Notes: generated from the letters alone by a model not told the origin. DNA of 26,422 nt from a virus (IMGVR_UViG_2541047936_000001); one strand, 5' to 3'. Shown: positions 10,731 to 17,600, counted from the stretch's first letter. Program-made: numbers and translations.

Positions 10731-11630
10731 ATGATTGATCCACTTATTAGAAACTTACAGAGTGATATTGCACTACTCCAGCTTTATATCGCGCAACGCA
10801 AACAGGCAGGCTTTCATGACATGGAAAGAATAATTGAGTCATTGACCATCTTTATGTTTCGCGCGCTGAAAATGGGTGAACTGGTAAACATGAATCAGAT
10901 TAAAGTTAATTTTCCCGCCATTGATTTAGCTGATAATAAAAACATGATAGCAGTTCAAGTTACTACGAATGCAAGTCCAGCAAAAATTAAAAAAACTATC
11001 GAATCTTTTGAGAAAATAAATGAAATAGGAGAGAGTCTGAAAGATAAATACTCTACTTTATATATTTTTGGTTTTTGTAAAGCCTCAAGATACCTAACTC
11101 CAAGTTATTGTAAAATAATCGACCCCAGCTATTTCGTGAATGAACTTTGCGATAAAGCAGATGAAGATATGGTCCAGGATATGATTGACGCCATTCGACG
11201 CCATCATGATTATACATCATTACATCCATGGAGTGATAAAGATTCACTCGAAATTATACTCAATATTATTAATCGCAATGCAATAAAACATCGGATGAGT
11301 TGCGAAGGCAGTCTGTCTGATATGCTCACTGGTTTAAAAGAAATTAATGAAGTAATTACAAAAGGAACAATTCAACGTAAGCAACGTTCAAAATCGATAT
11401 CTGACTTCAAAGATCAAAGCATGGTGAAATTTATGAGAGGTGTAATGGATGATTTGTCTGTTATTCAAGCCATAGTGAACAAATCTAAAGTTAACCAAGG
11501 TGATATGGTTTATATAAGCCATGAAGATATGATTAATATTGATAAATTAAAAGCTAAAATAGCAAGTGATTCATCAGAGATTGCAAGGCTAAATAATATT
11601 GATATAACACTAAATGTTGTTGATTTATAA
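10731..11630 (+). CDS. Cargo protein (299 aa), soluble; N-terminal ~125 aa resemble a SMEK-type N-terminal domain of defence-associated proteins; C-terminal ~170 aa unassigned
   Basis: ORF in ~33% GC DNA; motifs NFPAIDLADNKNMIAVQVT...KIKKTIESF; AAGGA Shine-Dalgarno. Confidence 0.7.
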   Translation: MIDPLIRNLQSDIALLQLYIAQRKQAGFHDMERIIESLTIFMFRALKMGELVNMNQIKVNFPAIDLADNKNMIAVQVTTNASPAKIKKTIESFEKINEIGESLKDKYSTLYIFGFCKASRYLTPSYCKIIDPSYFVNELCDKADEDMVQDMIDAIRRHHDYTSLHPWSDKDSLEIILNIINRNAIKHRMSCEGSLSDMLTGLKEINEVITKGTIQRKQRSKSISDFKDQSMVKFMRGVMDDLSVIQAIVNKSKVNQGDMVYISHEDMINIDKLKAKIASDSSEIARLNNIDITLNVVDL

Positions 11631-11944
11631 TTGTCGATTTAGCAAAACAGAGAATGCTTTGAAAGTTTCACCGAGAAATATTTATTGTGAACCTCCTTAT
11701 TGTTTATCGACTTTTACTCTCCGCTCATTGCAGTACTGTCGGAGAAGGCTACTATGTACAAGAAGCAGCTAACATAAGCGAGCATCACTATTGATATTAG
11801 GAAGAGTATATAAAAACTTCATGCTGAACCTTACAAAAGTAGGTAAACCGGCAATGGCCTAAGTGGCAGGGTCATGTTGATCCGGCACTGCCGAGCTAAT
11901 AATTAACAAGCAAATCACTCTTTCTAATAATTTGTTGAAATAAA

Positions 11945-12604
11945 CTAAATATGTATATGTTTACCAACAACCACATATGAACTACCTGCTTTGCTCCATG
12001 ATTTTATTATTTCTAAATTATTATCTGAGCATATTTTACTTACAGTATCCACATCTAATAAACCATAGTAGAAAGCATTGCGAGAGTTTTGGTATATATA
12101 CCCATGCAAATGTTTAATACCGCTCTCGTACCTCTTGAAATAAGAACTTTTGTATTGATTGACAATCAGTGCTTCACCATCACTCTTTAATAATTCTCTA
12201 ATCGCACTGAGGACTTTGTGAATTGTGGATTCACATGGAATTGCGGAAAGCACGTTTGCGCAAAGTATGAAATCATAATGATTTGTTATTTTATCTATAT
12301 TTTCATAAGAAACAATATTAGCATTCTTATAGTTATTTATCACGTAATCTGGAATCGTGGTTTGTACACCTCTGATAATTTGCACTCTTTCTAGTTGTCT
12401 TCTGGAATCTAAAAATGTCACAGTTTCAAATTTATTTACTAATTGTTCTGAATATCTAAGTTTTCCACATCCAAAATCAAGGGCATTGCCATTTTTATTA
12501 GTGCTTTCAATCTGTTTACAGAGATAGTTAGATGGCATAGTGTGCGGTTTCGCTGCATTTTCTGAACGTATGTTTATTCCATTTATTTTGTAATTCAAAA
12601 TCAA
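11945..12604 (-). CDS. Small class I SAM-dependent methyltransferase (TehB/TPMT-like fold); true start probably the second TTG (12598)
   Basis: Motif I ALDFGCGKL, acidic TFLD, YDFILCANVLSAIP, KSDGEALIV; no DPPY/NPPY DNA-MTase motif seen; GAGG 6 nt before second TTG. Confidence 0.75.
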   Translation of the reverse strand: MILNYKINGINIRSENAAKPHTMPSNYLCKQIESTNKNGNALDFGCGKLRYSEQLVNKFETVTFLDSRRQLERVQIIRGVQTTIPDYVINNYKNANIVSYENIDKITNHYDFILCANVLSAIPCESTIHKVLSAIRELLKSDGEALIVNQYKSSYFKRYESGIKHLHGYIYQNSRNAFYYGLLDVDTVSKICSDNNLEIIKSWSKAGSSYVVVGKHIHI

Positions 12605-12610
12605 CCTCGT

Positions 12611-13318
12611 TTAAAAAATATTGTTATTGTTAAAGAATTCTTTTATTTTGCTATCAGGTATTTGTCTTACTTGGCTTTCTGTTCTTGGTTTAACTGATGC
12701 TATGAAAATAAGGAAGTCAAATGCGACAAGAGAAATAATCCACAACCAAAGATTAATTAAAGAGCCAGTAACAGAGAATATATTTGTTAATTTGGCGATA
12801 CTTATTATTAAAATAGTAACAAATGCGATTACTGTATGTTCAAAGAAAACCCAAAAGTAATAAACTTTGTTCCAGAAAAGTTCAACGTAATGTTTGTCTT
12901 TTAACTCTTTAACTTCTGGGTAATACAGTTTACTCATTACCTTGTGAGATTCATCAGTAGTTAATTTTCTCGTAACGCCTGCAATTTTTGCTAATGGTTT
13001 AATAATTAAATGACTATCCCACATCTTCCTTATTCCAATAATTTTTGCTACATTATTATGTAGATCTAAAGCTCCACTAATTACTGACCAAAAAACTGAA
13101 GATGCAATTGGTAATATGCCAAAGGTTAATATCCATTTAATAAATTCCTCGTAGTCTTTAACGGGGGGGATATACTTGGCATTAATGCCAACCAATGGCA
13201 TGTAGCCATAAATGACTAATGATAGGTAAAATATAAATGTAGTAATAAAAGTCGCCTTATGGAGCATAGGCAACATTTCATTATAACTCTTTGGTGGTTC
13301 TAACATTTTACTCTCCAA
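12611..13318 (-). CDS. Integral membrane protein (235 aa, about four predicted TM helices), first gene of the operon with the methyltransferase
   Basis: Hydrophobic stretches TFITTFIFYLSLVIYGYMPLVGI, WILTFGILPIASSVFWSVISGAL, YYFWVFFEHTVIAFVTILIISIA, LINLWLWIISLVAFDFLIFIASV. Confidence 0.7.
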   Translation of the reverse strand: MESKMLEPPKSYNEMLPMLHKATFITTFIFYLSLVIYGYMPLVGINAKYIPPVKDYEEFIKWILTFGILPIASSVFWSVISGALDLHNNVAKIIGIRKMWDSHLIIKPLAKIAGVTRKLTTDESHKVMSKLYYPEVKELKDKHYVELFWNKVYYFWVFFEHTVIAFVTILIISIAKLTNIFSVTGSLINLWLWIISLVAFDFLIFIASVKPRTESQVRQIPDSKIKEFFNNNNIF

Positions 13319-13747
13319 ACACTCAAAAAAAAGCTAATCTTCTATAATAACGAAATTCAGCTGGCACAATTAAAGATTAATTGCCACCAATTTCTTGATT
13401 TTATAATTTTATCTAAATGTTTTTGATTAATCTAGTCCTAAAAGAAACCTACTGCATAAATATTTATGCTGATGACCCACTCCCTGTTCGTTAACACATA
13501 GCAACGTTAGTAATGCATCCTAAGTGATCAATATTTTTGCTAGCTTCATCTGCTCGCTCAAAGGGAACTATAATGTTGGCTTGCGTGTGACTTGGCATGT
13601 TTAAAGAAGTGCTGGTGGTGACTGGTTGCTGTTTTCCATTTCCACAGAACAAAATCATAGAAACTATACCCAGTAGTTGTATTGAATCACTGACGAGACA
13701 GCCTCATATTTATCAGGACTGGTGTACGTCCAATACAGGAGGTTGTG

Positions 13748-13837
13748 GTGCTGGTTCTCAAATGTGCGCTGGCTATTGCTGCTGTAATGGCAATTTATTG
13801 TCTTGCTGTTGTTCTTATGGATCACCTTTCTGATTGA
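13748..13837 (+). CDS. Candidate small hydrophobic peptide (29 aa: MLVLKCALAIAAVMAIYCLAVVLMDHLSD), GTG start with strong Shine-Dalgarno
   Basis: AGGAGG at 13737-13742, 5-nt spacer, GTG 13748; +1 frame relative to the 78-aa Cys-rich ORF. Confidence 0.35.
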   Translation: MLVLKCALAIAAVMAIYCLAVVLMDHLSD

Positions 13838-14048
13838 TTTCATATTGGCGAGGTAACGGTAGTTAAGTAGAATTGCTGCGGGTGCTTGAGGCTATCTGCC
13901 TCGGGCATCAACACCAAAGGCAGATAGAGAAAAGCCCCAGTTAACATTACGCGTCCGGCAAGACGCTTAACATTAATCTGAGGCCATATCTATGCTCTAC
14001 ACACGTAGGTTAGCCTCTTACGTGCCGAAAGGCAAGGAGAAGCAGGCT

Positions 14049-14204
14049 ATGAAGCAGCAAAAGGCGATGTTAATCGCCCTGATCGTCATCTGTTTAACCG
14101 TCATAGTGACGGCACTGGTAACGAGGAAAGACCTCTGCGAGGTACGAATCCGAACCGGCCAGACGGAGGTCGCTGTCTTCACAGCTTACGAATCTGAGGA
14201 GTAA
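14049..14204 (+). CDS. hokD: Hok-family type I toxin (51 aa), HokD/RelF-like
   Basis: MKQQKAMLIALIVICLTVIVTALVTRKDLCEVRIRTGQTEVAVFTAYESEE; AGGAGA Shine-Dalgarno at 14035-14040. Confidence 0.85.
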   Translation: MKQQKAMLIALIVICLTVIVTALVTRKDLCEVRIRTGQTEVAVFTAYESEE

Positions 14205-14274
14205 GAGACCCGGCGGGGGAGAAATCCCTCGCCACCTCTGATGTGTCAGGCATTCTCAACGCACCCGCATTTAA

Positions 14275-14299
14275 CCCGCTTCGGCGGGTTTTTGTTTTT
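14275..14299 (+). terminator. Rho-independent terminator after hok (CCCGCTTCGGCGGG + U-tract)
   Basis: Hairpin and T-run read directly. Confidence 0.6.
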
Positions 14300-14421
14300 A
14301 TTTTCAACGCGTTTGAAGTTCTGGGCGGTGCCGGAATAGAATCAAAAATACTTAAGTAGCGCGCAGGGATAAGAGGGATGGACCCCGAACAGGGGAGTGC
14401 TATTTATCTGGAAGGATTCTG

Positions 14422-14685
14422 TTGATGAAAATCGAAGAATTACGTGAAATTTTTACTGAAGATGGCCTCTATACTGTGCGCGTTGAGAATGGTGCTATTG
14501 TCAGTCACTGCCGTATTAAATGTTTACAATCTAAACAAAGGAAGAGTGGTGCTGCGTTAATTTATTTTGTGGATGAACTTGTGACAGATGGTTTTATTTT
14601 GCGTGAAAATGAATTTGTCACATCATTGCAGTCTCTGAAAGAAGCTGGGCTTAAGGCTGGTTTTTCTGCTTTTGAAGATGAGTAA
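14422..14685 (+). CDS. Hypothetical nin-region protein (87 aa)
   Basis: ORF track only. Confidence 0.45.
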   Translation: MMKIEELREIFTEDGLYTVRVENGAIVSHCRIKCLQSKQRKSGAALIYFVDELVTDGFILRENEFVTSLQSLKEAGLKAGFSAFEDE

Positions 14686-17230: not shown

Positions 17231-17350
17231 GTGCCACTTATCTCGGATAGACATGGTGAATGCGCTGGTGGAGGAAGCAAGGGTAATTTTTAACCAGGTG
17301 ATTCTTGAATGCTTGCAACATTGATTTCGTAACGTTATTATCCTGCGCCC

Positions 17351-17426
17351 GGCCCTTTAGCTCAGTGGTGAGAGCGAGCGACTCATAATCGCCAGGCCGC
17401 TGGTTCAAATCCAGCAAGGGCCACCA
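17351..17426 (+). tRNA. tRNA with CAU anticodon (Ile2/ileZ-like, or Met)
   Basis: GGCCCTTTAGCTCAGTGGTGAGAGC...anticodon loop CUCAUAA...TTCAAATCC...CCA. Confidence 0.8.
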
Positions 17427-17433
17427 TCACATA

Positions 17434-17510
17434 CCGCCATTAGCTCATCGGGATAGAACGCCAGCCTTCGAAGCTGGTTTCGCGGGGTTCGAGTCTCCGA
17501 TGGCGGTCCA
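17434..17510 (+). tRNA. tRNA-Arg, anticodon UCG
   Basis: Cloverleaf with anticodon loop CUUCGAA; acceptor CCGCCAT/ATGGCGG; CCA end. Confidence 0.75.
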
Positions 17511-17523
17511 TTATCGGTATTCT

Positions 17524-17600
17524 GCGTTTTTAGCTCAGCCGGACAGAGCAATTGCCTTCTAAGCAATCGGTCACTGGTTCGAACCCAGTACAACGCACCA
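17524..17600 (+). tRNA. tRNA-Arg, anticodon UCU
   Basis: Cloverleaf with anticodon loop CUUCUAA; CCA end. Confidence 0.75.

Follow-up and report, generated by a model that had tools for sequence, protein, structure and literature searches.

The stretch of viral DNA analysed here (26,422 bp, hereafter the window) very probably carries a true gene that has its own promoter and specifies a very small membrane peptide; it is located immediately upstream from the toxin gene hok. The gene (13748..13837, plus strand) has 29 codons, terminates with TGA (13835-13837) and would code for the single-pass hydrophobic peptide MLVLKCALAIAAVMAIYCLAVVLMDHLSD. Judging from its sequence features and distribution, it is probably a genuine, independently transcribed gene whose 29-residue product spans the inner membrane once, carried as a moron by lambdoid prophages of Escherichia and Shigella. 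Its position would be the right edge of a variable cargo slot bordered by the replication genes on one side and the nin/Q region on the other. The peptide very probably represents an orphan family within the small prophage-encoded membrane peptides, encoded by a gene that is real, widespread and neglected.

The window is a Qin-like lambdoid E. coli prophage whose integration site lies beside mtfA and a tRNA-Ser gene. Its segment 13400-14350, used as a 951-base query, matched strains C7, D1 and C3 with 100% identity. The C7 annotation, whose coordinates match, gives the gene order integrase, exonuclease, dicB, dicA/dicC, replication genes and a cargo block, followed by hokD, DUF968, rusA, Q, three tRNAs, lysis genes and terminase. 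The hok/mok/sok locus (13880..14298, plus strand) starts with a leader (13880-14054) recognized by the hok leader model of Rfam (RF01794; 114 bits, E=1e-26), whose alignment places the 5′ end of the hok mRNA at ~13880. The mok frame begins at 13992, and hok (14050-14204; hokD in RefSeq) matches the NCBIfam Hok family and has E=7e-14 in the searches of protein family models. A hok promoter-like site was identified by the promoter scan at 13845..13873 (plus strand; TTGGCG, 17 nt, TAGAAT), starting 8 nt past the peptide TGA, and the terminator scan found the hok terminator on the same strand (14273-14290 plus a T run). The latter scan revealed no intrinsic terminator between the peptide stop codon and hok, so that a transcript of the small gene probably reads through into hok. 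Directly past the hok terminator there is another promoter-like sequence (TTGAAG, 18 nt, TAGAAT; 14313-14342). It precedes the 87-aa gene found at the Rem position (14422-14685) and may restart transcription of the nin/Q region.

Direct reading of the sequence identified the Shine-Dalgarno AGGAGG (13737..13742, plus strand) separated by the 5-nt spacer TTGTG from the GTG initiation codon (13748-13750), in full agreement with the preliminary description of a 29-aa frame with these signals. The ORF lister begins the frame one codon upstream, at GTG 13745, which gives a 30-aa product. That codon is absent from most relatives; GTG 13748 is present in all recovered copies, including those of a collection made with flanking anchors, while the patterns of other ORF searches had this GTG fixed. 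The Shine-Dalgarno varies among relatives (AGGAGA, GGGAGG, AGGGGG and, rarely, AGAAGA) and its spacing to GTG is always 5 nt. AGGAGG occurs six times in the window and has a start codon 4-9 nt downstream in three cases: a true 140-aa gene, the peptide ORF and one site within the terminase gene. The mean hydropathy of the peptide (1.86) ranks second among the 137 window ORFs of 25-40 aa and amounts to 2.7 over residues 6-24. The size and composition of a type I toxin attributed to it earlier are a correct reading of its 29 residues and single hydrophobic helix. The same attributes, together with an RBS and initiation codon and with conservation at the protein level, are those of the small membrane proteins of at most 50 aa. 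Invariant or near-invariant residues include A9, A12, A15 and I16-Y17, and C6 and C18 are nearly so.

The main support for the gene comes from the pattern of nucleotide changes among its relatives. These were gathered by means of two flanking anchors, CATATTTATCAG and ATATTGGCGAGGT, set to enclose 110-140 unspecified bases, the ORF itself playing no role in selection. The 125 phage and prophage loci so collected (from IMG/VR and annotated records) have identical spacing without exception, which means no indels, and reduce to 22 ORF haplotypes with no stop codon. Changes in the peptide frame of these loci are 14 synonymous and 15 non-synonymous, with none to a stop codon. The synonymous ones exceed the 7.9±2.0 expected when the same base changes are re-placed at random positions (P=0.003). 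The amino acid replacements (V/I, A/V, A/T, M/T, M/V, C/Y, C/F, H/R, L/F and S/T) conserve hydropathy beyond random (P=0.008). Read in the frame of the overlapping Cys-rich ORF, the changes in these loci are 5 synonymous and 24 non-synonymous. In a set of 36 haplotypes pN/pS is 0.37 for the peptide frame, 0.72 for the second frame and 0.94 for the frame of an overlapping Cys-rich ORF, but this set includes loci found with an amino-acid-degenerate pattern that biases it towards the peptide frame, and the tests relied on are those of the flanking-anchor loci alone. The most divergent copy is identical at 75 of 90 ORF positions, its differences being 9.5 synonymous and 5.5 non-synonymous, the latter conservative. 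Another copy has 83 identical ORF positions out of 90 as opposed to 24 out of 66 over the 66 nt upstream. Altogether the peptide frame is intact in 171 of the 172 evaluable loci and altered in one. The absence of indels and stop codons, the synonymous excess, the replacements that keep hydropathy and the neutral-looking Cys-rich frame indicate that the ORF is maintained beyond chance.

A weak point of a coding gene as explanation is the low overall divergence of the family, which leaves ~30 substitutions as the basis of the selection tests. The same low divergence would suit conservation exerted on DNA or RNA with the ORF being incidental, if the stretch served to control the hok promoter from upstream, marked a boundary at which phage modules recombine or produced a non-coding RNA. 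The region adjoins the hok promoter, module boundaries are found at several points around the gene and ~135 nt upstream of the −35 hexamer are conserved about as well as the ORF in the main family. We consider an origin of this type improbable because a single frame shows third-position bias and hydropathy-keeping replacements, because the Shine-Dalgarno, its 5-nt spacing and the GTG survive amid a diverged leader with no indel in 125 loci, and because the unit persists where hok is missing and gives no RNA structure signal. The conserved upstream segment itself (13545-13680) accompanies the main family in hok and non-hok contexts and is missing in other families. None of its frames gives a distinct coding signal, the best one counting 19 synonymous, 34 non-synonymous and 4 stop changes, and Rfam has no match to it.

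Two other ORFs overlap the peptide gene. The first, of 78 codons and Cys-rich (13597..13833, plus strand), has the peptide in its +1 frame (13748-13597 = 151) and no Shine-Dalgarno before its ATG when the sequence is read, two features that had been reported correctly before. The second is a 59-aa ORF on the minus strand (13664..13843). Both are deposited as ‘hypothetical protein’ in many GenBank records, the antisense ORF being also called in phage HannyBb. The 78-aa product belongs to a protein cluster of 62 members and its exact sequence is found on 392 contigs. Of 54 haplotypes, 50 have this frame open and four have stop codons in it. In spite of this public record we give almost no credence to either of them being the true gene. 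Where it overlaps the peptide, the Cys-rich frame accumulated 5 synonymous versus 24-26 non-synonymous changes (pN/pS 0.94), the N-terminal half of the ORF is missing in several families that retain the peptide, and the minus-strand frame is open in just 28 of 54 haplotypes. The 78-aa ORF was therefore judged a non-gene, and the two calls look like spurious ones that displace the 29-codon gene. The comparison of conservation between the two plus-strand frames, which the preliminary description had named as a possible refutation, favors its choice: constraint at the protein level is found in the peptide frame and the Cys-rich frame is near neutral, justifying the doubt it had cast on the longer ORF.

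Alignment of all distinct upstream sequences on the start codon disclosed at least five families that are unrelated further upstream and in a 17-nt spacer but share one layout: TTGAAK, 17 nt, CATATT, 25-26 nt, RGGAGG, 5 nt, GTG. In the window the predicted −35 is TTGAAT (13682..13687) and the predicted −10 is CATATT (13705..13710), both on the plus strand. The −35 element is TTGAAT or TTGAAG (TTGCTG in one family), kept 17 nt away from a CATATT that is invariant in the upstream variants listed, among them those whose recovery did not depend on the leader sequence. The spacer of families A and B matches at ~7 of 17 positions (counted by hand) and the leader found after the −10 has roughly 36-60% identity among diverged copies. 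Hexamers kept at a fixed spacing across a variable spacer are the signature of a σ70 promoter, and TTGAAT-17-CATATT is accordingly predicted to be the gene's own promoter, of moderate strength and constitutive type. It matches the consensus at 8 of 12 positions and was just missed by the promoter scan, whose threshold is 9 of 12. This score counts against independent transcription of the gene, as does the presence of another hexamer (TCTCAT or ATGCGA) at the −35 position in 22 of ~190 loci that have an intact ORF. Such alleles may be natural promoter-down variants. The replacements occur in IMG/VR loci L023, L141 and L144 (16 loci) and in the L044-type (6 loci), where the −10, RBS and ORF are intact. 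The blocks of homology with different phages start at ~13545, 13585, 13645 or 13695; the smallest unit they share thus extends from the −35 hexamer to ~19 nt past the stop codon.

The position of the −10 suggests a transcription start at ~13717 and a 5′ leader of ~30 nt (predicted segment 13715..13747, plus strand). The leader has the motif GTGTACGTC at 13722-13730 (~+5 to +15), which is retained in the form GTRYRCGYC where leaders have diverged. RNAalifold proposes a helix that pairs GUGUACGU of the leader motif with AUGUGCGC in ORF codons 5-7 and would enclose the RBS, a structure at odds with free access of ribosomes to the gene. It was rejected because its covariation is at the level of shuffled controls (0.170 versus 0.168 in shuffles, with one compensatory pair). 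Neither a role of the motif as operator for a regulator nor one as the arm of a weak helix is supported, and candidate LexA or CRP sites inspected by eye in the leader have the wrong spacing. The sequence of events that we favor is that the moderate σ70 promoter (13682-13710) would direct transcription from ~13717 and that the open leader would offer a strong AGGAGG to a weak GTG. The peptide would then insert in the membrane with Lys5 on the cytoplasmic side and its acidic tail D(R/H)LSD outside. Its Ala-rich helix (A7, A11, A15) may act by self-pairing or by pairing with another membrane protein; we interpret these three residues as a small-xxx-small face fit for helix-helix packing. It is the composition of the peptide that suggests this function.

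The region 13560-13850 matches 2510 of 5426 complete E. coli genomes, with coverage of at least 80% in 1590 of them, and the stretch of the peptide gene is present in the active temperate phages Tritos, Evi, mEp460_ev081 and HannyBb. Relatives of the peptide were sought by exact cluster look-up, by scans with anchor and degenerate DNA patterns and by phmmer with the 30-aa form. The codon-degenerate scan of one genome per species (185,579 species) recovered only E. albertii, E. ruysiae, S. flexneri and three gut metagenome bins, the latter with E. coli-like sequence at the peptide locus. When 1.84 billion representative proteins were compared exhaustively by phmmer, the matches were all from the same family, mostly as N-terminally over-extended gene calls. 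According to these searches the family is limited to lambdoid prophages of Escherichia and Shigella. The peptide has no match in Pfam (E up to 10) or NCBIfam (E up to 1) and nothing was found for it in PADLOC or PHROGs, the lone PHROG match having E=0.7.

The gene had been presented as unannotated. This is the case in the identical RefSeq genome, where it has no annotation, but GenBank entry APK03751.1 (‘membrane protein’) is identical to the peptide and RefSeq entry WP_000960667.1 (‘hypothetical protein’) is a close variant found on 650 contigs, which the NCBI pipeline calls only in some genomes. The pipeline and a GenBank submitter called the 29-codon frame independently. No annotation is found at its position in 39 of 40 genomes sampled from the E. 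coli matches. A full-text search of a paper library with the peptide sequence and both accession codes gave no match and no transcript, ribosome-profiling or proteomic evidence. The sequence is also absent from the supplementary files searched for the Sakai ribosome-profiling study and for a survey of intergenic small ORFs in Enterobacteriaceae, and recent work that surveyed the diversity of Hok is silent on an upstream ORF. In the Qin prophage of K-12 (MG1655), relB-relE is directly upstream from hokD, at a distance of 71 nt, and the peptide gene is absent. The relBE segment replaces the small gene together with the hok promoter and leader (4120-4873 of the K-12 locus L192), which explains that K-12 has neither the peptide nor an autonomous hok/sok unit at this site. 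The surveys of small proteins carried out in K-12 missed the peptide for this reason.

On its right side the peptide gene runs into the hok leader in 158 of 172 loci (~92%) and into unrelated DNA in the other 14 (~8%). The last nucleotides that still travel with the gene are a short tail past the stop codon (13838..13856, plus strand), which reads TTTCATATTGGCGAGGTAA in the hok context and TTACATACTGGCTAGAAAA in the no-hok context; similarity ends at ~13856. The no-hok context is also a cargo slot of lambdoid prophages, with the order BCCT transporter, DUF2254, LysR, gamma-glutamylcyclotransferase, MFS, small gene, DUF1971 and nin-type genes, and no hok is detected there by Rfam. It is found in Shigella flexneri and ~296 complete E. 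coli genomes. The small gene closes a metabolic-looking cargo island in E. coli 13C1079T (L190, 533-7845) and in Shigella flexneri (L131). Six annotated left neighbours were encountered, on either strand: the 231-aa membrane protein of the window (minus strand), a DUF4145 protein, a trio of DUF262, AAA ATPase and hypothetical protein, a 444-aa hypothetical protein (minus strand, phage Tritos), hypothetical genes (phage HannyBb) and an MFS transporter (minus strand). The varied neighbours and the two downstream contexts define the peptide unit as autonomous.

The close linkage to hok raises the possibility that the unit serves its neighbor by transcription only, as a regulatory uORF or promoter that would send RNA polymerase over the promoter of hok and into collision with sok transcription, the peptide being irrelevant. 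The stop codon located 8 nt from the hok −35 with no terminator between would fit such a role. We find it very improbable, however, because a purely transcriptional role does not need the purifying selection seen on the amino acids, because no alternative terminator or antiterminator structures were found and because loci lacking hok retain the unit. The locus does not resemble a leader peptide with attenuator either, given that no terminator precedes hok and that the peptide sequence is under purifying selection. The ~92% linkage to hok could reflect a functional tie that an independently transcribed peptide gene does not account for, and this figure makes Hok a candidate partner. There is a slim chance that the peptide is a membrane-active partner of Hok (a second toxin or a Hok modulator) made from a transcript reading through into mok/hok. 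Were this true, one Sok and one 3′-processing pathway would govern two membrane peptides in a previously unrecognized two-peptide form of the prophage hok/sok module.

The hok/sok pair is a textbook type I toxin-antitoxin system, and the peptide had been put forward as a second toxin of this type. It could be a membrane-depolarising peptide checked by a cis-antisense RNA that escaped detection, or it could be coupled to Sok if its mRNA runs on into mok/hok and shares the RNase III decay triggered by Sok. We regard this explanation as unlikely, while leaving it an appreciable share of probability. Resemblances to type I toxins (Hok/Gef, Ldr, Ibs, TisB, ShoB, DinQ, ZorO) are the length below 60 aa, the single hydrophobic helix, the weak GTG and the location on a mobile element directly beside hok, a true member of the group, from which no terminator separates the gene. 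Conversely, the peptide has no sequence relation to them, its leader is short and apparently unstructured in place of a long folded 5′ UTR, and its C-terminus is acidic where theirs is basic. In Pfam and NCBIfam, where models of such toxins would be expected, there is no match to Hok/Gef (Pfam Hok_Gef, NCBIfam NF007279) or another type I toxin family. Members of Hok/Gef have about 50 aa, a Cys-containing domain in the periplasm and an overlapping mok frame, whereas no frame that could be initiated overlaps the peptide gene from upstream.

The search for an RNA partner gave no support to a toxin either. The scan of the minus strand over the peptide gene revealed no promoter-like or terminator-like site, with the qualification that its threshold would miss the sense promoter as well and that weak antisense promoters can escape it. 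Rfam has no family over the gene (13680-13860). Folding of both strands was no better than that of shuffled sequences (z = −0.23 for 129 nt, +0.96 for 336 nt and +0.38) and neither an inverted repeat nor a complementary stretch above chance is present in the locus or in the window. The predicted leader of ~30 nt does not provide the long folded structure that blocks translation of type I toxins, and the covariation of its helix is at shuffle level, as mentioned above. Since the conserved unit starts at the −35, a divergent RNA of the IstR, OhsC or OrzO kind is not part of what is conserved. The antisense RNA whose search on the opposite strand had been suggested thus did not appear as promoter, terminator, Rfam family or complementarity. 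Three candidate structures were discarded. A hairpin at 13772-13791 is inside the ORF and has 3 G-C pairs, making it unsuitable as terminator, and its conservation is accounted for by coding. A minus-strand ‘sok’ match in Rfam (13841-13938, E=0.13) corresponds to the hok 5′ hairpin and an isrK-like match (14213-14294; 25.8 bits versus a gathering score of 50) to the hok terminator, neither being a new RNA.

The distribution of the gene also argues against a toxin: the ~8% of copies that lack hok/sok altogether are intact, and only 1 of 172 peptide copies is altered, as compared to the chromosomal hok copies, which are often inactivated. With no antisense promoter, complementary RNA, supported leader structure or toxin-family match, there is no justification for classing the peptide among the type I toxins, and two toxins in tandem is a hypothesis that has no positive support here. 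Many hydrophobic peptides are harmful when over-produced, and by analogy this may well apply to the present one. A potent toxin would nevertheless be hard to reconcile with an unrepressed promoter and an open RBS in combination with no visible antitoxin. We find it more likely that the product of the independently transcribed gene is a small membrane protein that the cell tolerates. It would be either a modulator or a factor of exclusion, and could modulate or block a membrane protein of the host or of a phage.

A precedent for tandem toxins under one antitoxin exists in another prophage, the Bacillus SPbeta, whose yonT/yoyJ/SR6 locus also has two small hydrophobic ORFs in tandem (PMC5848175). 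In that case a mapped antisense RNA covers both genes, whereas in the peptide-hok arrangement Sok, which targets mok/hok, is the only RNA recognizable and does not overlap the small gene. Another likeness is to the small inner-membrane proteins of E. coli discovered by ribosome profiling (the class of YnfS, YohP and AcrZ/MgtS), which have at most 50 aa, a single TM helix and a strong RBS and were missed by standard annotation; the peptide differs by its absence from K-12. YnfS has the same length of 29 aa and is encoded by the Qin prophage, but its sequence is unrelated. DicB of Qin is another small prophage-borne protein, one that acts on inner-membrane proteins of the host (PMC6832061), and the peptide gene is found in a Qin-like element with a dicA/dicC immunity region, being plausibly expressed from its own predicted promoter. 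DicB is, however, a soluble protein of 62 aa with known targets, and the analogy is a functional speculation.

A conserved gene is found directly before hok in most sampled copies and is almost never annotated. If translation takes place, the small membrane proteins of prophages gain an orphan family of wide occurrence, and the question arises of whether the peptide acts with, against or independently of Hok. Annotation pipelines should call the 29-codon frame and discard the 78-aa Cys-rich ORF propagated in GenBank, and studies of prophage hok loci should take in the 170 nt upstream. The practical gain is modest but real.

Further observations concern the regions on both sides of the locus. 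The left cargo block (10731-13318) has a SMEK-domain gene on the plus strand (~10731-11630) and a minus-strand pair (11945-13318). The SMEK-domain protein matches Pfam SMEK_N (E=2e-22) and the PADLOC model Aga_REase-PNTD (E=1e-20); the block also codes for a class I SAM methyltransferase and for a multi-pass membrane protein (~231 aa) that matches no family. The block may be a conflict or defence cassette occupying a variable slot of the prophage. Past the Q antiterminator gene, the RefSeq annotation of the identical genome shows tRNAs for Ile, Arg and Arg (~17350-17600) followed, at 17773-18365, by a pseudogene of the TerB family, interrupted by a stop codon, and by a DUF3927 gene.
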